From positions 1 to 39,496 of the forward strand of contig JBDRNI010000040.1 of NCBI GenBank assembly GCA_043811335.1: a stretch of DNA of 39,496 bases, read 5' to 3'. The notes beneath the pieces were generated by a model. That model worked only from the letters and a program-made list of their open reading frames with translations, made no database searches and had not been told where the DNA came from. Below are positions 333-39,496 of this stretch, one piece after another. This stretch comes from Candidatus Omnitrophota bacterium (GTDB lineage Bacteria > Omnitrophota > Gorgyraeia > Tantalellales > Tantalellaceae). The stretch's first letter is position 1. The number at the start of each line of letters is the position of its first letter. Position numbers and translations under genes: made by a program.

Positions 333-408
333 AGGAGAGTAGCTCAATTGGTAGAGCACCGGTCTCCAAAACCGGGGGTTGCAGGTTCGAGACCTGTCTC
401 TCCTGCCA
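333..408 (+). tRNA. trnW: tRNA-Trp (anticodon CCA), encoded 3' CCA
   Basis: A cloverleaf can be drawn by hand. Acceptor AGGAGAG/CTCTCCT, D arm GCTC-AATTGGTA-GAGC, anticodon arm CCGGT-CTCCAAA-ACCGG, T arm GCAGG-TTCGAGA-CCTGT, then discriminator G and CCA. Total 76 nt. Confidence 0.9.
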
Positions 409-12329: not shown

Positions 12330-14402
12330 ATGGGAAAAATACAAGATATACGAAATATAGGAATAATCGCTCATATAGACGCCGGTAAAACAACCGTTAC
12401 GGAAAGAGTGCTTTTCCATACGGGTAAGATCCATAAGATGGGTGAAGTCCACGACGGCACGGCGGTCATGGACTGGATGGAGCAGGAACAGGAGCGGGGC
12501 ATTACCATAACCAGCGCCGTTACGACCTGTCAGTGGCAGGACAAGAATATTAATATTATCGATACGCCCGGGCACGTGGATTTCACGATCGAGGTAGAGC
12601 GTTCTCTCAAGGTGCTTGACGGTGTGCTCGTCGTTTTCTGCGCCGTCGGCGGCGTTCAGCCGCAGACGGAAACAGTATGGCGTCAGGCCGACCATTACGA
12701 CATACCCCGGATAGCGCTTATAAACAAGATAGACCGCGTCGGAGCCGACTTTTACAAGGTTATCATAGACATGCATAAAAAGCTGGGCGCCAATGCGACA
12801 CCGATACAGATACCGATCGGAAAAGAAGACAAGTTTTGCGGGGTAATAGACCTTATAAAATGCAAGGCATACATATTTGACGAAGAGGGGGATCTCAAGG
12901 ATGCTGTGGAACAGGAGATCCCCGAGGCCATGAAGGATATTACCAGTCATTGGAGACACAATCTTATAGAAAAACTTGCGGACGTGGACCCTGAAGTTGA
13001 AGAGCTCTATTTGACAGATACGGGTATCTATCCCGAGGATCTCAAGAAACATATAAGAAGGATCACGAATAAAAATAAATTCATTCCCGTCATGTGCGGA
13101 TCCGCCCTGAAGAACAAGGGTATGAAGTTTGTCCTGGATGCCATCTGTGATTATCTGCCGTCTCCGCTGGATGTGGCAGCTCCGAAGGCTGTGCATCCCG
13201 ACACGGGAAAGGAAGTCACAATAGTTCCCGAAGAGAAAAGTCCTCTTTGCGCGTATGCGTATAAGGTCATGACGGATCCTTTTGTGGGGACAGTGACTTT
13301 CGTGCGTATCTACGCGGGCAAGATGGAGTCGGGAACGTATGTTTTTAACACGACTACGGAAAAACGGGAACGGGTGGCGAAGATCCTCCGCATGCATGCC
13401 GACCAGAGAGAGATCATCACGTCGGCCGGTCCGGGCCAGATAGTCGGTCTGGCGGGACTTAAGGCGACGTCCACAGCGCATACGCTTTGTGATGAAAAGC
13501 ATCCGATGGCGCTTGATAGAATAAAATATCCGGAGACCGTTATTTCCATGTCAATAGAACCGGAGACCAGGGCTGATCAGGACAAACTGGGAATGGCGCT
13601 TAAAAAGCTTGAGACTGAAGACCCTTCCTTTAAGGTCAAGTATAACGAGGAGACGGGACAGACGATCATCAGCGGCATGGGTGAACTTCATTTAGAGATC
13701 CTTATTGATAGATTAAAAAGGGAGTTTAAGGTAGGCGCGAACGTCGGCAGTCCGCAGGTGGCATATCGTGAAACCGTAACCCAGCAGGTTGATTCAACGG
13801 GCAAGTTTATACAGCAAACAGGCGGACACGGTCAGTATGGGCACGTTGAATTGAAGATCGGGCCGTCGGAAAAAGGCGAAGGCGTCGTATTTGAGCAAAA
13901 GATAAAAGGCGGCAGCATTCCGAGGGAATATTTCAAGGCGATTGAACAGGGCGTCAGAAACGCCGCAAAGACGGGAGCCCTCGCGGGATATCCCGTTACC
14001 GATATAAAAGTCGTTCTTTACGACGGGTCTTATCATGATGTTGATTCCTCGGAACTGGCCTTTAACAGCGCCGCATCAATAGCGATGAAAGCGGGAGTTC
14101 AAAAAGCAAAACCTATTCTTCTGGAACCCATAATGCAACTTGAAGTAACAACGCCGGATGAGTATCTCGGGGATGTTATAGGGGACATGAACATGAGAAG
14201 AATTAAGGTAGAGAACATTGAGCAGAAAGCGACGACAAAGATAATATCCGGCGCCGCTCCGCTTGCGCAAATGTTCGGTTACGCAACGGCCTTAAGAAGC
14301 TTGACACAAGGTAGAGCAACGTATACAATGGAGCCTTCGTTTTACAAGGAAGTGCCTAAAAATATAATGGAGAAGGTTATTACCGGCACGCCGGAGGAAT
14401 AG
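12330..14402 (+). CDS. fusA: elongation factor G
   Basis: [17 protein letters not shown]1 motif, DTPGHVDF, 690 aa. Confidence 0.97.
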
Positions 14403-25532: not shown

Positions 25533-26882
25533 GTGTTTGACGCTTTTGTAAATATTTTCAAAATTCCAGATCTGAAAAAAAAGATCCTGTTTACTCTCGG
25601 GTTGATAGCCGTATACAGGATAGGCGCTTTTGTTCCGACGCCGGGGATAGACGGTCAGCAGCTGGCGCAGTTCTTTGATAATATTGCGAAGACACAGGGC
25701 GGAACGCTGTTAGGTATAATGAACATGTTTTCCGGCGGTGCCATGCAGCGATTAACCATATTTGCTCTCGGTATCATGCCGTATATATCCGCGTCGATCA
25801 TTCTACAGCTTTTGACGACGGTTATTCCGGCGCTGGAACGCCTTGCGAAGCAGGGAGAGGAAGGCCGCAAGGCCATAACCCAATATACGAGATATTGTAC
25901 GATAGGTCTTGCTATCGTACAGTCCTTTTTTATAGCGTTGTGGCTGGAAAACCCCGCGCATTTCCAGGGCATGCAGATCGTCCAGTATCCGGGATTGGGT
26001 TTTCGGATATTGTCCGTCATTACGCTTACGACGGGAACGGCGTTTATCATGTGGCTTGGCGAGCAGATACAGGAAAAGGGGATCGGTAACGGTATTTCAT
26101 TGATAATTACGGCCGGTATCGTTTCAAGGCTGCCGGCAGCTATTATACAGCTTGTTTCACTGGCATCTCCGGGAAGCAGTGGTGAGGCCCAGATAGACCC
26201 GTTCAAACTGGTTTTTCTTGCGCTCATGTTCGTGGGTGTTATTGTCGCCGTTGTCCTCATAACGCAGGGTCAGAGGAAGATCCCGATCCAGTATGCCAAA
26301 AGGGTTATCGGCAGAAGGGTATACGGCGGACAGAGCACTTATATACCTCTGAGGGTTAACCAGGGCGGTGTTATCCCCATTATATTCGCGCAGTCGATCA
26401 TATTATTTCCGGCCACGATCGCCGGTTTTGTCCCGCACAGAACAGTGCAGACACTTGCGAGTTCTCTCATGATGGGAAGACCACTTTATTATGTGGTGTA
26501 TTCGCTGCTTATATTATTTTTCTGTTATTTTTACGCGGCAATAACTTTTAACCCCATTGATATGGCAAATAACATGAAACGGTTCGGGGGGTTCGTGCCG
26601 GGAATAAGACCCGGGAAGCAAACTGCCGAATATCTGGATTTTATAATGACGCGCATAACGTTGCCGGGCGCCTTGTTTCTTACCGTCATAGCGGTTTTGC
26701 CGAGCGTGATAAACAGTCAGATCGGCATACCCTTTCTCGTAGCCAGTTTTTTCGGAGGCACCGGTCTCTTAATCGTTGTCGGAGTCATGCTGGACACGAT
26801 GAGGCAGGTGGAATCGCACATGCTCACGAGACACTATGAAGGGTTCATGAAAAAAGGGCGAGTACGGGGACGGTTGGCATGA
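25533..26882 (+). CDS. secY: preprotein translocase subunit SecY (GTG start)
   Basis: 449 aa with multiple TM segments and the conserved spc-cluster position. AGGAG lies 6 nt upstream. Confidence 0.96.
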   Translation: MFDAFVNIFKIPDLKKKILFTLGLIAVYRIGAFVPTPGIDGQQLAQFFDNIAKTQGGTLLGIMNMFSGGAMQRLTIFALGIMPYISASIILQLLTTVIPALERLAKQGEEGRKAITQYTRYCTIGLAIVQSFFIALWLENPAHFQGMQIVQYPGLGFRILSVITLTTGTAFIMWLGEQIQEKGIGNGISLIITAGIVSRLPAAIIQLVSLASPGSSGEAQIDPFKLVFLALMFVGVIVAVVLITQGQRKIPIQYAKRVIGRRVYGGQSTYIPLRVNQGGVIPIIFAQSIILFPATIAGFVPHRTVQTLASSLMMGRPLYYVVYSLLILFFCYFYAAITFNPIDMANNMKRFGGFVPGIRPGKQTAEYLDFIMTRITLPGALFLTVIAVLPSVINSQIGIPFLVASFFGGTGLLIVVGVMLDTMRQVESHMLTRHYEGFMKKGRVRGRLA

Positions 26883-27571
26883 CGCTGAAGAAAGAGTTTA
26901 ATCTGGTTCTTTTAGGACCTCCCGGCGCCGGCAAGGGAACGCAGGCAGGTTATTTGACAAAAGCGTATCATCTGCCCCATGTTTCTACGGGAGACATGCT
27001 GCGCGAGGCCGTGAAAGAAGGCACCGAAACGGGAATAGAGGCCGAGAAGTATATGAATTCCGGGGAGCTTGTTCCCGATTCCGTCGTGACGCGTATCATG
27101 ATAGAGCGGATGGCCAAGCCGGATGCTGCAGGCGGCGTGATATTTGATGGATATCCGCGAACCGTTCCGCAGGCCGGATCGCTTGATGACGCGTTGATCA
27201 AGGAAGAACGCTCTTTGAATGTTGTGCTGTATTTTGAAACAACCGAGAAAGTTGCTGTCGAGAGGCTTTCCGGACGGAGAGTTTGCGGTAAGTGCAGCAA
27301 GAACTATCACGTTACTAACATGCCTCCGGCAAAAGATGGAACATGCGACGTTTGCGGTGGAGAACTTATACAGCGGGAAGACGACAAACCGGAAACGGTA
27401 AAAAATCGGTTAGCAGTTTATAAGGAACGTACGAAAGACCTTATTGAGTATTACGAGAAAAAAGGCCTCTTAAGGGAAGTTAACGGTGATCTTCCGGCTA
27501 AACAGCTCTTTGATGATATAGACGCTCTTTTTCGTCAGGAAGGCCTGATAAATGACGGTGATAACGGATAA
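26879..27571 (+). CDS. adk: adenylate kinase with Zn-binding lid
   Basis: GPPGAGKGT P-loop, STGDMLR, DGYPRT, and lid CGKC...CDVCGG. Confidence 0.96.
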   Translation: MTLKKEFNLVLLGPPGAGKGTQAGYLTKAYHLPHVSTGDMLREAVKEGTETGIEAEKYMNSGELVPDSVVTRIMIERMAKPDAAGGVIFDGYPRTVPQAGSLDDALIKEERSLNVVLYFETTEKVAVERLSGRRVCGKCSKNYHVTNMPPAKDGTCDVCGGELIQREDDKPETVKNRLAVYKERTKDLIEYYEKKGLLREVNGDLPAKQLFDDIDALFRQEGLINDGDNG

Positions 27572-30299: not shown

Positions 30300-31298
30300 A
30301 TGCGCGCGATGGGAATGAAATTGAAGAACTTTGAGTTACCCAAGCAAATAATCTTTAACGAGAAAACATACACTCCGACTTACGGGCAAGTTGTTGCGGA
30401 ACCTTTTGAAAAAGGATACGGCGTGACGATAGGGAATTCACTGCGAAGGGTTTTGCTCTCGTCTGTGGAGGGAACGGCAATAACGCGTGTCAAGATTGAA
30501 GGGGCGCTTCACGAATTTTCGACCATTCCGGGAGTATATGAAGACGTATCGCAGATAGTAATGAACCTCAAAGGGCTGGTGCTGCGGTCACACTTCAAGA
30601 CCCCAAAACCGATATTTCTGAGCGTGAAGAAAAAAGGAGAGGTCAAGGCGAAAGACATCAAGACCGATGAAACGGTTGAAATAGTGAATCCGGAACACCA
30701 CATAGCGACGTTGACGGAAAACACCACTTTTGAAGTTGAAATGCGAGTTGAACGCGGCCGGGGATATGTTCCGTCAGAGAGGAACAAGAACGGGGATAGT
30801 CCGGCAGGCATGATCGCCATTGACTCCCTGTTCTCTCCGGTGAAAAGAGTGAATATAAATGTTGAGAATACAAGAGTGGGACATATTACCGACTATGACA
30901 AGCTTATTCTTGATATATTCACGAATGGCAGCATGGAACCGAAGGAGGCGCTTTTATACGCCTCCAATGTGCTTCAGAGGCATCTTGATGTTTTTGTGGG
31001 TATAGGAAAATTAACGGAAGAGATAGAGGAAAAAGAAGAGGAATCCAGAGAGAAAACGGAACTCCGGAATAAATTGACTAAACCTATTTCCGAGCTTGAA
31101 TTATCCGTGAGAAGCTCAAATTGTCTGGCTGACGCGAATATCCGGACGATCGGAGATCTCGTGAGAAGGAAAGAGGCGGAAATGCTCAAGTATAAGAATT
31201 TCGGAAAGAAATCATTGAATGAGATCAACAGCGTTCTCTCTTCGATGGGACTGCATCTTGGTCTGGAGCTGGACGATGACGGGGAAGAGGAGGCGTAG
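30300..31298 (+). CDS. rpoA: DNA-directed RNA polymerase subunit alpha
   Basis: 332 aa. NTD (GNSLRRVLLSS) and CTD helix-hairpin-helix (LELSVRSSNCL). GAAGGAGGG SD. Confidence 0.96.
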   Translation: MRAMGMKLKNFELPKQIIFNEKTYTPTYGQVVAEPFEKGYGVTIGNSLRRVLLSSVEGTAITRVKIEGALHEFSTIPGVYEDVSQIVMNLKGLVLRSHFKTPKPIFLSVKKKGEVKAKDIKTDETVEIVNPEHHIATLTENTTFEVEMRVERGRGYVPSERNKNGDSPAGMIAIDSLFSPVKRVNINVENTRVGHITDYDKLILDIFTNGSMEPKEALLYASNVLQRHLDVFVGIGKLTEEIEEKEEESREKTELRNKLTKPISELELSVRSSNCLADANIRTIGDLVRRKEAEMLKYKNFGKKSLNEINSVLSSMGLHLGLELDDDGEEEA

Positions 31299-31306
31299 AC
31301 GGTAAA

Positions 31307-31912
31307 ATGAGACATCGCAAGAAAAAGGGAAGGCTTTCAAGAAACACGGCCTGGCGGAAAGCCACGCTCAAGAGTCTCGCTAATGATCTTTTCAAGCATC
31401 AGCGGATAGAAACCACGATGGCCAAGGCGCGTGCTTTGCGAAGTTTCGCGGAACCGCTGATAACGCTGGCGAAAAAAAGCCCCGGTTCGATAATCGCGAT
31501 GCGCCGGGCGTTCCAAAAACTCTCCGATAAAGATACCGTGAAAAACCTGTTTACCAACCTGGCGCCTTTATATAAAGACGTGAACGGCGGATACACGCGT
31601 ATAATGGCATTTGGGGACAGAAGAGGTGATGGCGCGCGCATGGCTATCATGGAACTGACAAAGAGAACCATCTCGGATGAAGAACTTTTAGGCATCGATA
31701 CAAAAGAGAAAGAAAAGAAGCGGAAACCGAAAGCGCAAAAGGGAAAGAAAGAAGAACGGGAAAAGACAAAAACCGTTCATCCCGCCGCAAAAACGGAAGA
31801 AAAAGATAAACATTCCGCCATCGACGTCAAAAAAGAAAAAGCGAAAACGGAACGGGAAAAGGTCACGAAGAGAGGTTTTTTTAAAAGGTTCCAGAGAAAA
31901 TCCATCGGATAA
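31307..31912 (+). CDS. rplQ: 50S ribosomal protein L17 with a K/E-rich C-terminal tail of about 80 aa
   Basis: MRHRKKKGRLSRNTAWRKATLKSLANDLFKHQRIETT core, then a lysine/glutamate-rich low-complexity tail. Confidence 0.94.
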   Translation: MRHRKKKGRLSRNTAWRKATLKSLANDLFKHQRIETTMAKARALRSFAEPLITLAKKSPGSIIAMRRAFQKLSDKDTVKNLFTNLAPLYKDVNGGYTRIMAFGDRRGDGARMAIMELTKRTISDEELLGIDTKEKEKKRKPKAQKGKKEEREKTKTVHPAAKTEEKDKHSAIDVKKEKAKTEREKVTKRGFFKRFQRKSIG

Positions 31913-31935
31913 CGATCACCGATTTTCCCGCCAAA

Positions 31936-31966
31936 GGCAGACCCGCCTCCGGCGGGCTTGTCTGCC
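31936..31966 (+). terminator. GC-rich hairpin after rplQ (possible terminator, no T-run)
   Basis: GGCAGACCCGCC-TCC-GGCGGG(CTTG)TCTGCC. Confidence 0.3.
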
Positions 31967-32008
31967 GCAGATCAAAGGGTTTTACACCTACCACGTGGAG
32001 AGTGCAGC

Positions 32009-34624
32009 ATGGGGTCAGCTCTTACGCCGATGATGCGGCAATATCTGGATATCAAGCAGCAGCATACCGATTCTATTCTTTTCTTCCGACTCGGCGATTT
32101 CTATGAGATGTTCTTTGATGATGCCGTCGAGGCCACGCGCATACTTCACATCACGCTTACTTCCAGAGGTAAAGATAAGGATAAAAAAGTGCCGATGTGC
32201 GGCATTCCTTATCACGCCGCAGACAACTACATCGCACGACTTATAAAACACGGAAAAAAAGTCGCTATTTGTGACCAAATGGAAGCGCCTGTCGCGGGCA
32301 AAAGCATTGTTCGCAGAGAGGTCACGCGGATAGTGACGCCGGGGACGGTTACGGCAGATACCCTTCTGGAAGGGGCGGTAAACAATTATATTCTTTCACT
32401 CAGCGTATCGGGCGCGAAATTCGGCATTGCGTACGCGGACATATCAACCGGCGAATTCTGCGTCATGGAGTTTGACAACAAAGAAGACCTTTTTGCTGAA
32501 CTCTATAAGATCTCACCTGCAGAATGTCTGGTTTCCGAAAGTTTCCACAAAAATAAAGATTTCCATGAATTTAACAAGGCAAACCTCGGCGTGGTGACCG
32601 TGAACGACGACTGGATGTTTGATCATGAATTGTCCCTGAAGGAGATTAAACGTCATTTCGCGGTGGAAAGTCTTGAAGGATTTGGATGCTCCGAATTGAA
32701 CGCCGCGGTGGAAGCCGCCGGCGCGCTTTTAAAATATCTGAAGAACACGCAGAAAAACCGCCTGGGGAATATAGACGTTATATCCACGCGCCGCGCCGAT
32801 CACTTCATGGCCATGGATCGGAATTCTCACCGCCACCTGGAACTTATACGGAACCAGGAGGACCTATCCGTCAGGGGGACGCTCTTTGAGGTTCTTGACG
32901 GGACAAAAACCCCGATGGGAAAAAGAAAACTTAAAGAATGGATATTGAACCCTCTTACAAGCGTTGATGAAATAAAGAACCGCTTGGACCTCGTGCAGTA
33001 TTTTTACGACAACACGTCCTGCCGCCGCAAAGCAAGAGAACTTCTCAATGACATGTATGATATAGAACGGCTTTCCGGCCGGGTAAATATGGGCATGGCC
33101 AACGCCAGAGACATGACGGCGCTTGGGGCCTCTCTCAAAAATGTCGGCCGGATGCGGACCGGTTTTTCCGGAAAAATACCGCCGGGGCTGCAGGACATTA
33201 TAACGGATCTGGATGATTTCAGCGATGTGATAAAATGGATAGACGACTGTCTCGTGGTATCGCCCCCGGCGACTTTGCATGAGGGCGGGCTGATTAAAGA
33301 GGGGTATTCTCCGGAGATTGACGAGTTGAGACGTTTGGTGGATGGAGGAAAGGACTGGGTCGCGGATCTTCAAAAAAGTGAGATCAAGCGGACGGGGATA
33401 AACTCTCTCAAGGTAGGGTTTAACAGTGTGTTCGGGTATTATATTGAAGTTACCAGGGCCAATCTGGACGCCGTTCCGTCCGATTATGTGCGCAAGCAGA
33501 CCCTCGTGAACGCGGAACGGTTTATCACTCAGGCGCTGAAAGAGCAGGAATCAAAGATAATAGGGGCCTCCGAGCGCGCGAGGGTCATGGAATATGAAGT
33601 GTTCTCTTGCCTGCGTGACAAGGTAGGGACCGAGATTGAACGATTAAAAAGAACGGCCCGCCGCGTTGCCGAAACAGATGTTCTTTCAAATCTCGCGGAA
33701 AGCGCCGTCGTGAACCGTTACTGTCGTCCGGAGATGAATACCGGCAGCGGCATGAGCGTTGTTGAGGGTCGTCATCCCGTTCTTGAAAAAATACTGAAAG
33801 ACAAGGCGTTCGTGCCGAATGATCTTTCCATGAACAACGATGACAAAAGGGTTTTCATAATAACCGGATCTAACATGGCGGGCAAATCCACATTCATACG
33901 GCAGATGGCGCTTATTATCATAATGGCCCAGATGGGGAGTTTTGTTCCGGCCTCTTCCGCGGAAATCGGGATAGTGGACAGGATCTTCACGCGTGTCGGC
34001 GCTTCGGACAGATTATATCACGGCATGAGCACGTTCATGGTGGAGATGCTGGAGACGGCTAACATACTTAACAATGCTGCCGGGAAAAGCCTTATTATCC
34101 TGGATGAGATCGGAAGGGGAACGAGCACATTTGACGGCGTAGCCATTGCGTGGGCGACGGTTGAATTCATACACGGGCATCTTCCGGGCGCAAAGGCGAT
34201 GTTCGCCACGCATTATCACGAACTCACGGAATTGGCGGATGTCATGCGCGGGGTTAAGAACTATCATCTTGCGATCAAGGAATGGTGTGATGAGATCATA
34301 TTTCTTTATAAGGTGACCGAGGGGAGCTGTGACGAAAGTTTCGGCATACACGTTGCGCGTCTGGCCGGCATGCCCAGGGCCGTGATCACGCGAGCGCGTG
34401 AGATCCTGGATAATCTGCAGAAGGATTCTACCACGGGCAATATCCGCATGCGTTTTTCAAAAAAGAAAAAAACACAAAATGACCAACTAAATTTTTTCAA
34501 CGCCGAACAAAAAGAACACCCTGTTATCGGGAAGATCAAAGGGCTGGACACTGACAGTCTGACGCCACTTGAGGCGTTGAAAAAACTGGCAGACCTTAAG
34601 CGCGAAGTTGGGGACGGAGATTAG
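32009..34624 (+). CDS. mutS: DNA mismatch repair protein MutS
   Basis: MGSALTPMMRQYLDIKQQH... Walker A GSNMAGKST. The ATG at 32009 follows GGAGAG. The track start at 31958 is an upstream TTG inside the hairpin. Confidence 0.95.
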   Translation: MGSALTPMMRQYLDIKQQHTDSILFFRLGDFYEMFFDDAVEATRILHITLTSRGKDKDKKVPMCGIPYHAADNYIARLIKHGKKVAICDQMEAPVAGKSIVRREVTRIVTPGTVTADTLLEGAVNNYILSLSVSGAKFGIAYADISTGEFCVMEFDNKEDLFAELYKISPAECLVSESFHKNKDFHEFNKANLGVVTVNDDWMFDHELSLKEIKRHFAVESLEGFGCSELNAAVEAAGALLKYLKNTQKNRLGNIDVISTRRADHFMAMDRNSHRHLELIRNQEDLSVRGTLFEVLDGTKTPMGKRKLKEWILNPLTSVDEIKNRLDLVQYFYDNTSCRRKARELLNDMYDIERLSGRVNMGMANARDMTALGASLKNVGRMRTGFSGKIPPGLQDIITDLDDFSDVIKWIDDCLVVSPPATLHEGGLIKEGYSPEIDELRRLVDGGKDWVADLQKSEIKRTGINSLKVGFNSVFGYYIEVTRANLDAVPSDYVRKQTLVNAERFITQALKEQESKIIGASERARVMEYEVFSCLRDKVGTEIERLKRTARRVAETDVLSNLAESAVVNRYCRPEMNTGSGMSVVEGRHPVLEKILKDKAFVPNDLSMNNDDKRVFIITGSNMAGKSTFIRQMALIIIMAQMGSFVPASSAEIGIVDRIFTRVGASDRLYHGMSTFMVEMLETANILNNAAGKSLIILDEIGRGTSTFDGVAIAWATVEFIHGHLPGAKAMFATHYHELTELADVMRGVKNYHLAIKEWCDEIIFLYKVTEGSCDESFGIHVARLAGMPRAVITRAREILDNLQKDSTTGNIRMRFSKKKKTQNDQLNFFNAEQKEHPVIGKIKGLDTDSLTPLEALKKLADLKREVGDGD

Positions 34625-37334: not shown

Positions 37335-37432
37335 TTCCGGCCCGGGACCGTTCCGGCCCGGGACCGGAAATAAAGGACCGGAAATAAAGGTGGGACCGTT
37401 CCGGTCGGACCGTTCCGGTCCCGGGCCGGAAG
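37335..37432. repeat. Family G: GC-rich compound direct and inverted repeat downstream of nth
   Basis: TTCCGGCCCGGGACCG x2 (37335-37366), GAAATAAAGG x2 (37367-37376, 37381-37390), GGACCGTTCCGGTC x2 (37393-37420). The outer 16-mer pairs perfectly with CGGTCCCGGGCCGGAA (37417-37432). Confidence 0.85.
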
Positions 37433-37461
37433 TTAGGGTAGAAACTGCTCAAAGCGGTGGA

Positions 37462-37501: not shown

Positions 37502-37681
37502 GCAAGCAAGCTTGCCAGTCAATTCTTCGTATTGTGCGTGGTTGACCTATTGGCTAGCTCCCATGTGTGTTAATGTCTAAAAAGGTGGTTATTTTATGGA
37601 CTTATGTGCTGGAATTTGTTAATATGTGTTTTAAGTTAGACTAATAAAATGGTAAATGTGAGTATCTTTGGAGGGGGAAAA

Positions 37682-39496
37682 ATGGGAAATATGTTCACAC
37701 GCAGAATAGTATCTATAGCCATGGCCTTATGCCTGGTAACAAACGGCATAGTGACCGCCTACGGCGACATCGTTGTTTCCGTTAGAGACGCTTGTCTCGG
37801 GCCTGAGCTTGTTTTCGGTAAGGCCATCGGGGTGGATCCATATAATCATAAGTTCGCCGCCCTTGCTATGATCGGGCTTCAGGGAGAGCTGCATAAACTT
37901 GACGGAAGAACTCACGCTATTAACGACGTGAGTGATCTGGACGCGATCAGAAAAGTCATCAGCTCCTCCAAGCGTTCTACCTACAAGAGTTGGAACGAAG
38001 CTACGGAAAATGACCCGGCCGAGGTAAAGTGTTATTTTCGGGATATCCAACATGTCGCAGGATCTGTATTTTCAGTGCCGGTTCACGTCAAGAAAAGTGG
38101 TTCAGGCGCGCGGCAGAATTATCTTCTGGCTTTTTCCACGAAAAAGGACGCGAACGGCGGTTTTCCCGCCGCGGTATGCACTGAAGACCAGCTGCGAGAA
38201 GTGCAGGAAGGCGCGCAGGAGTCGGGTGCAATATTTTCTTCCGCAGAAAAAGGCCTATCCGCCGTGGAAAGATACCGTCAACATGAGCGATTTGACAAAA
38301 ACGTTATCGAGTGGGCGCATAAGCAAGATCTTGCGGTGGAGATAGACGCGCAAGAGCATATTGACGCGATTCTGAAGGAAGCTGATATAACCGTTGAAAA
38401 TAAAGATAAACTTACACAAAACAGAAAATTTTATGTGATCTCGTATCGTCCCGGGGATGCGTGCGAAAAACGTATTAAGGGAAATAAGATTACCGCTGTC
38501 GATAAGGACGGCAAGAGCCGTGAAGTTCCGGCGTACGCTCATTCAAGCGCTTACGCTACATATGTTTTTCTGCCGGAAGGGGCATCTGACACGGTACTGC
38601 GCGAACGTCTTGCGCACGAAGTGGGCGTTATGTTTGGCTGTCCGGTTGAATCCTTTGACGGCGATCTCCCCGTTAACGAGATTGATGTACGATACAGCGC
38701 GACGAAGGAACGCGGGATCAATCTGGTGCTTTTGGGGCCGAACGGCGCAGGCAAGGGAACGCTGGCCATCGTTTTGGCAGAGACCTATGGTTTATTACAT
38801 GTCTCCACCGGCGATATGTTGCGGGCGGCCGTTGAGGAAGGCAGCGAGATCGGGTTAGAGGCCCAGAGATATATGGATGCCGGGGAGCTTGTTCCCGATC
38901 CTATCGTTGAGAGTGTCTTGATCGATCGGATAATCAAGCTGGACGCGGCACGAAGCGTGATGTTTGACGGATATCCGCGGACCCGTTCGCAGGCTGAATC
39001 TCTTGATAATGAGTTGAAGAAAAGAGGACGTTCTCTGGACGCTATTCTGTATTTTGAAACAACCGAAGAAGTTATTGTCCAGAGACTCTCCGGACGATTG
39101 GTATGTAGGGAATGTGGTAATATTCATCACATCTCGGGCGCCACGGCACCGAAAGAAGCGGGAATATGTGATAGCTGTGGCGGCAAGCTTTTTCAAAGAG
39201 ATGATGATAAACCGGCGACAGTAAAGAAACGGCTGTCTGTATATAGGGAAAAAATAGCGGGTCTTCTTGAATACTATAGGAAAGAAGGTCTTTTGAGGGG
39301 CGTTAACGGTGATCTTCCTGTCGAGGAACGCTTTGATGCGGTGGCTGCCATTTTTCGGCAGGAAGGTTTGGGAAGATCTTCGGCAAAATCCTTCACGGTC
39401 ATAGATCTGGATGAGAATCTGTTGACGAGAGATTATGCCGCAGGGCGTTCTCATGAACGGGACAAGGGAATGTTTGAGGCGCATTATTCGGAGCTG
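37682..39496 (+). CDS. multidomain protein, 3'-truncated by the window: signal-peptide-like N-terminus, unknown domain, adenylate-kinase domain, start of a further domain
   Basis: My hand translation from ATG 37682 (GGAGGGGG SD 7 nt upstream) found no stop through nt 39496 (605 codons). It is absent from the ORF track only because no stop lies in the window. The N-terminus is MGNMFTRRIVSIAMALCLVTNGIVTAYG. Residues ~346-563 read INLVLLGPNGAGKGT...STGDMLR...DGYPRT...CRECG...CDSCGG...QRDDDKP, an Adk domain. Confidence 0.8.
   Translation, partial: MGNMFTRRIVSIAMALCLVTNGIVTAYGDIVVSVRDACLGPELVFGKAIGVDPYNHKFAALAMIGLQGELHKLDGRTHAINDVSDLDAIRKVISSSKRSTYKSWNEATENDPAEVKCYFRDIQHVAGSVFSVPVHVKKSGSGARQNYLLAFSTKKDANGGFPAAVCTEDQLREVQEGAQESGAIFSSAEKGLSAVERYRQHERFDKNVIEWAHKQDLAVEIDAQEHIDAILKEADITVENKDKLTQNRKFYVISYRPGDACEKRIKGNKITAVDKDGKSREVPAYAHSSAYATYVFLPEGASDTVLRERLAHEVGVMFGCPVESFDGDLPVNEIDVRYSATKERGINLVLLGPNGAGKGTLAIVLAETYGLLHVSTGDMLRAAVEEGSEIGLEAQRYMDAGELVPDPIVESVLIDRIIKLDAARSVMFDGYPRTRSQAESLDNELKKRGRSLDAILYFETTEEVIVQRLSGRLVCRECGNIHHISGATAPKEAGICDSCGGKLFQRDDDKPATVKKRLSVYREKIAGLLEYYRKEGLLRGVNGDLPVEERFDAVAAIFRQEGLGRSSAKSFTVIDLDENLLTRDYAAGRSHERDKGMFEAHYSEL

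Follow-up and report, generated by a model that had tools for sequence, protein, structure and literature searches.

Among the closest described counterparts of the protein analysed here are the giant proteins of Omnitrophota, in which strings of metabolic enzymes (ROK, hexokinase, HAD, methyltransferases) come after a signal peptide or transmembrane (TM) segment, and for which two preprints, in the text available, describe rapid sequence divergence and a disputed localisation (10.64898/2026.06.07.730766; 10.1101/2023.11.21.568195). The first of these presents multi-enzyme metabolic cluster proteins with many TM helices and a minimum length of 10,000 aa (10.64898/2026.06.07.730766), and the second presents 'Archaeovorins', whose genes exceed 90 kb and whose products also have many TM helices (West-Roberts et al. 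2023; 10.1101/2023.11.21.568195). Giants of the Archaeovorin/Dockerin type are characterised there by GT, GH, peptidase or NUDIX domains or by dockerin/TSP3 repeats, and by SecA-like domains (10.1101/2023.11.21.568195). The N-terminal regions of the giants, in the wording of the accessible text, 'generally lack identifiable domains' (10.64898/2026.06.07.730766; 10.1101/2023.11.21.568195).

Signal-bearing strings of cytoplasmic-type enzymes in Omnitrophota have so far been represented mainly by such giants of 10,000-150,000 residues, which are nearly impossible to study. The window, an entire contig of 39,496 nt, ends within an open reading frame (ORF) that belongs to a far more compact family (the protein of this ORF would have about 1.4 kaa) posing the same localisation paradox. 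Unlike the giants, this family has a definable conserved head, cap and tail, which no database recognises. Because proteins of this size can be expressed, assayed, localised with reporters and solved structurally, the question of whether they are exported, displayed or tethered becomes directly testable.

The reading frame and its adenylate kinase

The NCBI product name for the ORF is 'MAG: adenylate kinase, partial [Candidatus Omnitrophota bacterium]'. As a preliminary description of the window had stated, 605 codons are open up to the point where the frame runs off the contig (Table 1), and comparison with an orthologue indicates that they are the 5′ part, the first 44%, of a modular protein of ~1,370 residues. 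An in-frame stop lies 16 codons 5′ of the annotated ATG. The start had been called a good one, and a Shine-Dalgarno-like sequence does precede it; however, translation may instead begin at another in-frame ATG, at 37691 (Met4), which the orthologue uses and which in the orthologue directly follows a stop. A promoter scan 5′ of the ORF gave nothing above shuffled expectation, an Rfam scan of the window matched only a tRNA, and an exact search of genome and metagenome contigs for a 54-mer at the end of the window found none.

Table 1. Features of the locus, with their positions in the window
Feature	Position	Strand	Residues	Basis or detail
Resident housekeeping adk	26879-27571			after secY
Shine-Dalgarno-like GGAGGGGG	37670..37677	+		5′ of annotated ATG 37682
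ORF	37682..39496	+		605 open codons
Signal-peptide-like N-terminus	37682..37765	+	1-28	n-region RR, h-region IVSIAMALCLV, TNG, A-Y-G c-region
Head module	37766..38716	+	29-345	HMMER relatives, alignment, AlphaFold model
NEIDxRY head motif	38672-38695	+	N332/R337	family alignment
Nested adenylate kinase (Adk)	38717..39370	+	346-563	Pfam/NCBIfam profiles, motifs
P-loop GPNGAGKGT of nested Adk	38735-38761		352-360	
Substrate/core motifs of nested Adk			376-381, 430-433, 470-472, 506-509, 515-518	TGDxLR, G[YF]PR, SGR, RDDD, KKRL, respectively
Four-Cys zinc lid of nested Adk	39104-39184		475-478, 496-499	CREC, CDSC
Head cap motif FTVIDLDENLLTRDYAAG	39392..39445	+	571-588	motif profile E 4e-13
Start of post-cap region	39446..39496	+		contig end interrupts; ~780 further residues in orthologue

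The Sec-like character that had been attributed to the N-terminus, with its basic n-region, hydrophobic core and A-Y-G site, is upheld by signal-peptide sequence rules. Specifically, the n-region is positive, the h-region falls within 7-15 residues, the c-region is polar and the residues at -3 and -1 are small. The hydrophobic core comprises 11 residues, with the polar TNG next and then A-Y-G, and the whole segment fits the pattern M-[KR][KR]-I-I-S...CFL..N.SFA of the family described below.

The nested Adk reaches 154.2 bits with the Pfam model ADK (PF00406; cutoff 26.8), 217.1 bits with TIGR01351 (cutoff 168) and 251.5 bits with NF001380, a marginal pass of the NCBIfam cutoff of 251; its lid reaches 47.8 bits with ADK_lid (PF05191; cutoff 26.6). 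The motifs STGDMLR, GYPRT, LSGR, QRDDD and KKRL are all intact. Profile scores, motifs and four-Cys lid agree with the earlier claim of a full and apparently active second Adk, and the domain is predicted to catalyse AMP + ATP <-> 2 ADP.

The resident housekeeping adk lies 10.8 kb upstream of the nested copy. The two Adks are 60% identical (dN/dS 0.20) and differ in the P-loop, which reads GPNGAGKGT in the nested domain and GPPGAGKGT in the resident enzyme; in word- or pattern-limited searches, the housekeeping gene of the same genome was the closest relative found for the nested copy. The nested Adk and that of the orthologue share 79% identity, and the catalytic motifs and lid are intact in both. 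Their dN/dS of 0.46 is relaxed relative to housekeeping genes (about 0.1), a value at which the nested domain is still judged to be kept intact under purifying selection. Such selection, at both dN/dS values, supports the predicted catalysis indirectly.

A family of heads, passengers and tails

Residues 29-345, which form the head, had been described as belonging to no recognisable family, and this stands as regards curated families and structures: the head sequence has no Pfam, NCBIfam or PDB match, searches of head, middle and tail with NCBIfam and PADLOC gave nothing above cutoffs, and the profile searches made no assignment to any well-known family fused to Adk. The recommended structural check was likewise carried out; AlphaFold models the head at a mean pLDDT of 82, and Foldseek finds no significant match to its fold in PDB or among viral structures (BFVD). 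What did not stand is the isolation of the sequence. An exhaustive HMMER search with the head yields 82 relatives (clusters at 50% identity; best E 9e-33) that form a head family, which overturns the outcome of word-indexed searches with residues 1-345 (no match or only the query itself) as an index artefact. With phmmer, 43 cluster representatives are matched at their residues ~20-350, the E-values running from 9e-33 to 1e-10. Every relative with an organism name is an Omnitrophota MAG, and on this distribution the family is restricted to the phylum.

Members of the family, of 0.7-4.5 kaa (the largest has 4,505 aa), share a layout in which a signal peptide is followed by a ~320-aa head ending in a cap, then by variable passenger enzymes and finally by a ~160-aa conserved tail. 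A strong h-region is present at 75 of the 82 N-termini, always with a net-positive n-region; a (-3,-1) site, whose median position is 21, is present in 74 of the 75. The passengers, which lie between head and tail or within the head, are by domain assignment interchangeable and normally cytoplasmic enzymes, among them hexokinase, PFK, PfkB, PGK, aldolases, transaldolase and dehydrogenases; further passengers are CsrA, RpoA-CTD and sigma54-type AAA+ modules. Besides the ORF and its orthologue, none of the family members examined has Adk as a passenger. Neither a conserved gene neighbourhood nor secretion-system neighbours were found for the family.

Near-invariant residues of the head are K57, F151, E202, H213, R248, H287-S-S, H312-E313-x-G and N332/R337, the last two lying in the NEIDxRY motif. 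The cap, with the consensus DLDxNLxTRDYAAG, follows ~15-25 residues past NEIDxRY in relatives and one Adk length further on in the ORF, where the head profile matches in two pieces on either side of the nested Adk. The 42 residues after the Adk carry this sharply conserved motif and are not a loose tail. Head homology and cap motif together identify the ORF as a member of the family. Because other members lack an Adk and the cap resumes in frame after that of the ORF, the insertion is nested. The Adk had been proposed to be fused to an N-terminal domain, but it is not merely appended there; by alignment it sits within a variable loop of the head, between NEIDxRY and the cap, and an adk copy is seen to have been captured there in frame, just before the cap, in this lineage. 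This capture represents a clean and recent evolutionary event.

Two other readings of head motifs were rejected. The DLD...RDYAAG element is not a recurring linker between modules or a polyprotein cleavage site, since in 40 of 42 proteins it occurs only once, at the head end (residues ~350-420). Similarly, the HEVGV of the head (LAHEVGV) does not denote a zincin metallopeptidase: the motif, in the ORF and in the family consensus, is a near-invariant HExGV with Val in the majority where HExxH needs its second His, and the head has no peptidase profile or fold match.

The tail, with the consensus LIFSEK.TF..G.G.LLPKLA..GIKVAVVA ... FA.AA-COOH, finishes at the C-terminus or no more than 15 residues from it in at least 35 members. 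In the AlphaFold model it is a five-strand Rossmann-like domain, and the cap region is undocked with a pLDDT of about 30. The tail is without a Pfam, NCBIfam or PDB match, and Foldseek of the full model (P0155) against PDB gave generic hits only, none significant. One idea considered was a split HAD domain, with the cap as motif I and the tail as core. The cap reads DLDEN, in which N replaces the T/V of DxDx[TV]; HAD_2 matches an artificial join of cap and tail at E 0.03 and 14.9 bits, below the cutoff of 23.8; and the tail profile has sub-significant matches to a P4-ATPase P-domain and HisB-N (E 0.8-1.4). Neither the AlphaFold model nor Foldseek lent this idea support.

The orthologue, on a contig from an independent MAG (L004:10001-14119), is a complete and uninterrupted ORF of 1,372 aa with 77% identity and the same synteny. 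Its layout is identical, with head, nested Adk, cap and then, as predicted, the family tail, which is reached through a K/E-rich helical region past the cap; the window ends before the C-terminus of its own ORF. The orthologue has no TM-like segment besides the hydrophobic one at its N-terminus, and its only Pfam matches are Adk-related models. The search for the same fusion in related genomes, which the preliminary description had advised, thus has a positive outcome: a separately assembled MAG encodes it at this level of identity, and the fusion is real. Between the two orthologues the gene has a dN of 0.13, compared with 0.014-0.028 for its neighbours, which amounts to 5-9 times faster protein evolution. 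By this measure it is fast-evolving yet under purifying selection. Fast evolution is typical of surface or interaction proteins.

Annotations such as 'adenylate kinase, partial' and 'PfkB family carbohydrate kinase' conceal this architecture. Metabolic reconstructions of Omnitrophota could be skewed if fused copies are treated as though they were ordinary enzymes of the cytoplasm.

Localisation and role of the protein

Taken whole, the best explanation, to which we assign a probability of roughly 60%, is that the protein is a member of the head-passenger-tail family, that its captured Adk works and that it is exported via Sec. Homology gives good support to the identity and architecture of the protein; the explanation is weakest on where the protein is located and what it does physiologically. 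The signal sequence would send the protein through Sec, and the Adk would operate beyond the cytoplasmic membrane, in the periplasm, on the surface of the cell or where it meets a host. We infer for it an extracytoplasmic role, in which it may balance adenine nucleotides for the ATP-using or ATP-making passengers of paralogues (hexokinase, PFK, PfkB, PGK), with head and tail perhaps providing a common anchoring or assembly chassis. Several observations count against export: the passengers need ATP, NAD(P) or CoA; the CsrA, RpoA-CTD and sigma54-type AAA+ modules are best suited to the cytoplasm; a four-Cys zinc lid is unusual on an exported domain; and conserved secretion-system neighbours were looked for and not found.

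A broader proposal, which we regard as doubtful, is that the whole family is an export or display chassis of ultra-small Omnitrophota, placing ATP-dependent sugar-phosphate enzymes outside the cytoplasmic membrane with Adk balancing their nucleotides. The enzymes concerned would be hexokinase/ROK, PFK, aldolase, PGK and transaldolase, and the site might be an enlarged periplasm or a host contact zone. If true, the outcome would be a form of glycolysis outside the cytoplasm, or of energy parasitism, on a scaffold with two new folds.

The alternative that survives best, and that we hold to be possible without being probable, is a scaffold that stays in the cytoplasm, with an uncleaved N-terminal anchor and the bulk of the protein inside the cell. 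Glycolytic and nucleotide enzymes would then be gathered at the inner membrane face, where an extra Adk might buffer adenylates locally. Such an arrangement would suit passengers that are all cytoplasmic-type enzymes or regulators using ATP, NAD or CoA or binding nucleic acid, the retention of the four-Cys zinc site in the Adk, and the position of the genes in housekeeping surroundings that lack secretion genes; moreover, one preprint, in its accessible text, puts at 46% the share of long Omnitrophota proteins with a predicted membrane anchor and a cytoplasmic bulk (10.64898/2026.06.07.730766). However, the positive n-region, the acidic flank past the h-region, the shortness of the h-region (about 11-12 residues) and the (-3,-1) site of 74 of 75 members together match a Sec signal that can be cleaved and leaves the C-terminus outside, and do not match an N-out/C-in anchor.

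Export could also serve delivery: once secreted, the protein would act within or upon a host or prey cell, its kinases, including Adk, perturbing or harvesting the nucleotide and sugar-phosphate pools of that cell. For Pseudomonas aeruginosa, secretion of Adk and Ndk with an action on the extracellular ATP of the host has been reported, a precedent that favours this reading. So do the signal peptide that sequence rules assign across the family, the evolution of the gene at several times the rate of its neighbours, and proposals that Omnitrophota are host-dependent or predatory, some of which encode ATP/ADP translocases; in the available preprint text, giant secreted proteins are implicated in prey attack (10.1101/2023.11.21.568195; 10.64898/2026.06.07.730766). 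We nevertheless consider delivery unlikely, as the reading is inferential throughout and the analysis detected neither a translocation domain nor a toxin-like module for delivery nor a link to a secretion system.

It is quite improbable that the Adk domain is no longer metabolic and has become a nucleotide-sensing or structural insert modulating the head. Its place in a conserved module, flanked by two near-invariant motifs, would accord with such a change, as would the relaxed dN/dS and the P-loop that differs from the resident one, but both orthologues keep all the catalytic Arg/Asp/Lys motifs and the zinc lid, and the domain scores above a curated equivalog cutoff. Finally, an assembly or sequencing artefact, in which a chimeric join or frameshift connects a separate adk to an unrelated ORF, might be suspected in a MAG contig whose end cuts the ORF, but can be dismissed given the independent contig with head, Adk and cap in 1,372 uninterrupted codons, the return of the family cap motif in frame after the Adk, and the uniform GC and GC3 over the Adk junctions.

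Comparison with known systems

In its fold signature, P-loop, arginines and CxxC...CxxC lid, the nested domain resembles the housekeeping zinc-lid Adk (TIGR01351/NF001380; PF00406 + PF05191). The housekeeping enzyme is a free-standing cytoplasmic protein of ~215 aa, whereas the nested Adk is a loop insert in a signal-bearing protein of ~1,370 aa, and this second copy in the genome evolves faster than housekeeping genes. The top database matches to the Adk part are tandem double adenylate kinases of ~470 aa (P0002-P0028), which also place Adk in a non-canonical multidomain setting; these consist of two Adk domains, without a head, cap, tail or signal sequence.

Extracytoplasmic Adks exist in the form of AK2 of the mitochondrial intermembrane space and the secreted Adk of Pseudomonas aeruginosa. 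Both may serve as functional analogies for the export model, as cases of an Adk outside the main ATP-producing compartment, although they are free proteins and the nested Adk is a domain embedded in a carrier whose export is predicted only. A literature search on exported bacterial adenylate kinases gave nothing useful.

The Omnitrophota giants described in the two preprints differ from the present family in that its members, at the sizes given above, have a single N-terminal hydrophobic segment. The ORF was also considered as an Archaeovorin/Dockerin-type giant, and this was rejected: the orthologue is a 1,372-aa protein with one hydrophobic segment and Adk-related Pfam models only, and domains of the dockerin, glycosyl-hydrolase or C39/S8 peptidase kind do not turn up in its Pfam scan. 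In the text available, neither preprint mentions adenylate kinase or describes a conserved head or tail (10.64898/2026.06.07.730766; 10.1101/2023.11.21.568195). Thus, the claim that this architecture had not been described holds for a head and tail chassis with an Adk passenger, but signal-bearing multi-enzyme proteins of Omnitrophota are already on record in the giants of these preprints. With those giants the head-passenger-tail family shares, as far as the accessible text allows comparison, its phylum, an N-terminal signal or TM segment, strings of enzymes and rapid divergence.

The head, the passengers and the tail

Residues 1-345 of the focal ORF match nothing in Pfam, NCBIfam or PDB sequence searches, and to this extent the preliminary description, which could assign residues 29-345 to no recognizable family, stands. 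However, an exhaustive HMMER search of 1.84 billion cluster representatives yields 82 relatives at E <= 1e-3, of which 43 reach E <= 1e-10, and the segment is thus a family module, here called the head. Searching 5.8 billion proteins by word index with the same residues returned nothing, not even the query's own identical protein, which was the only match to its profile version. Because its own protein was missed, this null is uninformative, and nulls from word-indexed protein searches call for caution where a family is divergent.

In nearly all HMMER matches the aligned part is residues ~20-350 of a protein of 0.5-4.5 kaa, and the relatives that bear an organism name are all from Candidatus Omnitrophota MAGs. 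The family N-terminus is stereotyped (M-[KR][KR]-I-I-S...CFL..N.SFA, then NLAPPL..DD.G..HK..LA..GLQ.DL), a pattern with which the focal RRIVSIAMALCLVTNGIVTAYG agrees. An alignment of 24 heads has near-invariant polar residues (K57, E202, H213, R248, H287-S-S(-N), H312-E313-x-G, N332 and R337) and a terminal block, DLDxNLxxRDYA. Modelled with this alignment by AlphaFold, as had been proposed for residues 29-345, the head gives a confident structure (mean pLDDT 82; 167 residues at 90 or above) with an N-terminal helix, a disordered linker and two alpha/beta subdomains. Foldseek finds it no significant match among 350,542 PDB chains (best E 0.12, TM < 0.2) or in BFVD, and NCBIfam and PADLOC profiles for curated families and defence systems, compared with head, middle and tail, gave no score over the cutoffs. 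By this model, the head is a real, folded and conserved module. HEVGV was rejected as a zincin motif because the second His is absent.

Pfam scans of 74 members reveal variable enzyme domains, or passengers, between the head and the C-terminus. These include transaldolase, PGK, PFK, class-II FBP aldolase, hexokinase, ROK and PfkB kinases, HAD, PHP, Glu and Ala dehydrogenases, 2-hydroxyacid dehydrogenase, parts of ADP-forming acyl-CoA synthetase, aldose epimerase, class-II aldolase, NTP-transferase, methyltransferases, M32 peptidase, AAA+/sigma54 modules, a receiver domain, RpoA-CTD and CsrA, all of them families that are normally cytoplasmic. In a hydropathy scan a segment recurs about 120 residues before the C-terminus, and it is part of a conserved tail of ~160 residues (...LIFSEK.TF..G.G.LLPKLA..GIKVAVVA...R.YYFK...FA.AA-COOH) that, in at least 35 members, ends no more than 15 residues short of the C-terminus. 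In the 796-aa member P0155 the tail is confidently modelled as a Rossmann-like domain of five strands, for which no significant fold match was found. The family layout is therefore a signal-like N-terminus, the head with its closing cap (DLDxNLxTRDYAAG), variable passengers and the tail. Short natural members such as P0134, which consists of the first head subdomain, a PFK with intact GGDDT and TMDND motifs and the tail, indicate that passengers are swapped as cassettes.

Cap and tail were also considered as a split HAD. The hints are sub-threshold (HAD_2 E 0.03; P-type ATPase P-domain and HisB-N profiles at E about 1), and neither the model nor Foldseek supports them.

An adenylate kinase within the head

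The long open frame with an adenylate kinase (Adk) claimed in the preliminary description is borne out. Residues 346-563 are a complete Adk by Pfam (ADK 154 bits, ADK_lid 47.8 bits) and NCBIfam (NF001380 251.5 bits, cutoff 251; TIGR01351 217, cutoff 168), and retain the P-loop, the NMP and LID arginines, the RDDD motif and the CxxC...CxxC zinc lid. NCBI names the product 'MAG: adenylate kinase, partial [Candidatus Omnitrophota bacterium]'. No Adk is present in any of the 81 relatives.

The two parts had been described as fused. The Adk is indeed intact and joined in one frame, but it is nested: VNEIDVRY (331-338) precedes it and the cap (571-588, starting at residue 570-571) follows, with the sharply conserved family motif FTVIDLDENLLTRDYAAG within 42 residues C-terminal of the Adk. 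Across the family the cap ends the head about 15-25 residues past NEIDxRY. Of the 42 proteins in which it was detected, 40 have exactly one copy of it, at residues ~350-420, and this rules it out as a repeated linker or cleavage site. The head profile matches the focal ORF in two pieces because the whole Adk stands between NEIDxRY and the cap. That linker varies in length, with inserts of 30-45 residues in some aligned members. The Adk is thus a whole domain cleanly inserted into a loop that tolerates insertions, not a C-terminal fusion.

In itself the Adk domain is ordinary. Its top database matches (P0002-P0028) are proteins of ~470 aa with two Adk domains in tandem, from many metagenomes and MAGs labelled Proteobacteria/Pseudomonadota; this is apparently a separate, uncharacterised Adk architecture.

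When species-representative genomes were scanned by pattern, the same arrangement emerged in contig CAZGOZ010000001.1 (L004), in a protein 77% identical across residues 4-602. The two loci share the order rpoA-rplQ-mutS-mutL-nth-gene, and the proteins share the signal-like N-terminus, head, nested Adk and cap. The L004 orthologue continues through a K/E-rich region of ~630 residues without Pfam match, whose last ~100 residues recur in other members, and ends in the family tail, confirming the family-based prediction of a tail downstream.

Features of the window and of L004
Feature	Sequence	Position	Remarks
tRNA gene	window	333-405	RF00005, 68.9 bits; 5' of rplK/rplA region; sole Rfam family reaching gathering threshold
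Housekeeping adk	window	26879-27571	in super-operon
Housekeeping neighbours	window	30300-34624	GC3 0.56-0.63
Direct-repeat cluster	window	37335-37438	GC-rich, short, just 3' of nth; TTCCGGCCCGGGACCG x3, GGACCGGAAATAAA x2; inverted repeats of 26-33 nt
Terminator-like hairpin	window	37444-37458	after the repeat cluster
GGAGGGGG	window		5' of ATG at 37682
Focal ORF	window (+)	37682-39496	605 open codons, truncated by sequence end; GC3 0.49-0.50
Second in-frame ATG	window	37691	Met4, three codons after annotated ATG
Orthologue	L004	10001-14119	complete, 1,372 codons
Pre-tail module	L004	~13160-13550	orthologue residues ~1053-1182; ~100 residues; contains LGVLARLGLLTVDKLRKENKYELTAPGY
166-aa ORF	L004	14159-14659	directly 3' of orthologue

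The pre-tail module looks winged-helix-like by eye, lacks a Pfam model and occurs one to three times in P0173, P0138, P0190 and P0186. The 166-aa ORF has, by eye only, a lipoprotein-type signal (…LATGC) and a staphylococcal-nuclease-like motif (DGDTIEL…VRYIGIDTPE). L004 is labelled 'uncultured Planctomycetia bacterium' and the window protein Candidatus Omnitrophota; since the two share 95-97% identity in the products of mutS, rpoA and rplQ, one label is probably wrong.

Genomic setting, selection and origin

The window is a whole contig of 39,496 nt and a chromosomal segment, with rpoB/rpoC and a ribosomal-protein super-operon (secY, adk, map, rpoA, rplQ) followed by mutS, mutL and nth. A 385-nt spacer separates the nth-side genes from the focal ORF. 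L004 has one TTCCGGCCCGGGG...GGAAGTTAGGG unit at the repeat locus, so the array has expanded in the window; a REP-like or terminator element is one possibility. The frame is closed by a stop 16 codons 5' of the annotated ATG. Because L004 has a TAA immediately before the codon matching Met4, and the usual family N-terminus is MF[KR][KR].IS, the true start may be Met4, with no other effect.

Divergence between window and L004, and between the two Adks of the window
Comparison	aa identity	dN	dS	dN/dS
mutS/rpoA/rplQ	95-97%	0.014-0.028	0.16-0.18	0.09-0.16
Whole ORF (1-605)	77%	0.13	0.46	0.29
Head (29-345)	77%	0.13	0.61	0.22
Adk (346-563)	79%	0.13	0.28	0.46
Cap (564-605)	71%	0.16	0.42	0.39
Nested vs housekeeping Adk, same contig	60%	0.26	1.27	0.20

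The focal protein evolves 5-9 times as fast as its neighbours and, judging from these ratios, is clearly constrained despite this. Its dS from L004 is about three times that of the neighbours (0.46 against 0.16), which, with its lower GC3, points to weaker selection on codons or to a mutational or recombinational history unlike theirs. The nested and housekeeping Adks are similar from about codon 7 to a common ...FRQEGL near the C-terminus, and the best of the other Adks retrieved in word- or pattern-limited searches is at most 50% identical. The simplest history would be in-frame capture of an old Omnitrophota adk duplicate in the ancestor of the window and L004 genomes.

Export or tether

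We favor, at a probability of roughly 0.6, a head-passenger-tail protein that a Sec signal would carry across the cytoplasmic membrane and whose active nested Adk would interconvert adenine nucleotides on its far side, together with the kinases that its paralogues carry as passengers. Of this view, the family membership, the nesting, the intactness of the Adk and the selection on it are shown, whereas catalysis, export and the physiological role are inferences. A strong 10-residue hydrophobic core is present in 75 of 82 family N-termini, all 75 with a net-positive n-region; the 20 residues after it are net acidic, and 74 members have a small-residue (-3,-1) site at median position 21. The complete L004 orthologue has no further TM-like segment. 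By classical rules, the N-terminus would thus be a cleavable Sec signal, in keeping with the preliminary claim of an exported or anchored protein, but the passengers argue against export: they depend on ATP, NAD or CoA, and some are nucleic-acid binders.

The same passengers would suit a membrane-tethered cytoplasmic enzyme scaffold with the helix as an uncleaved anchor, the main, though less likely, alternative, against which the charge pattern and (-3,-1) sites speak. A delivered effector acting on a host is improbable; the neighborhoods of two other members consist of unrelated housekeeping genes and include no secretion system. Slightly more doubtful still is a non-catalytic sensor or structural insert, since every Adk motif is functionally the same in the two orthologues. 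Finally, the sequencing error that the preliminary description had considered, or any chimeric or frameshift artefact, is eliminated for practical purposes by the independently assembled L004, which has the same layout in one ORF.

That description had also called the architecture undescribed. In the literature searched, we found no account of a compact family with this definable head, cap and tail, none of which has a counterpart in Pfam, NCBIfam or PDB, of an adenylate kinase as passenger or of its nesting within the head, but signal-bearing multi-enzyme Omnitrophota proteins have already been reported. A 2026 preprint describes a signal peptide or TM helices in 94% of Omnitrophota proteins of at least 10 kaa, including 'multi-enzyme metabolic clusters', and states that the topology of these long proteins is unvalidated (10.64898/2026.06.07.730766); a 2023 preprint says that the N-termini of giant proteins 'generally lack identifiable domains' (10.1101/2023.11.21.568195). 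The members of 0.7-1.4 kaa are tractable models for the localization puzzle that the giants raise. Although the giants are far larger, both present the same paradox of metabolic enzymes in proteins that bear a signal or TM helices.
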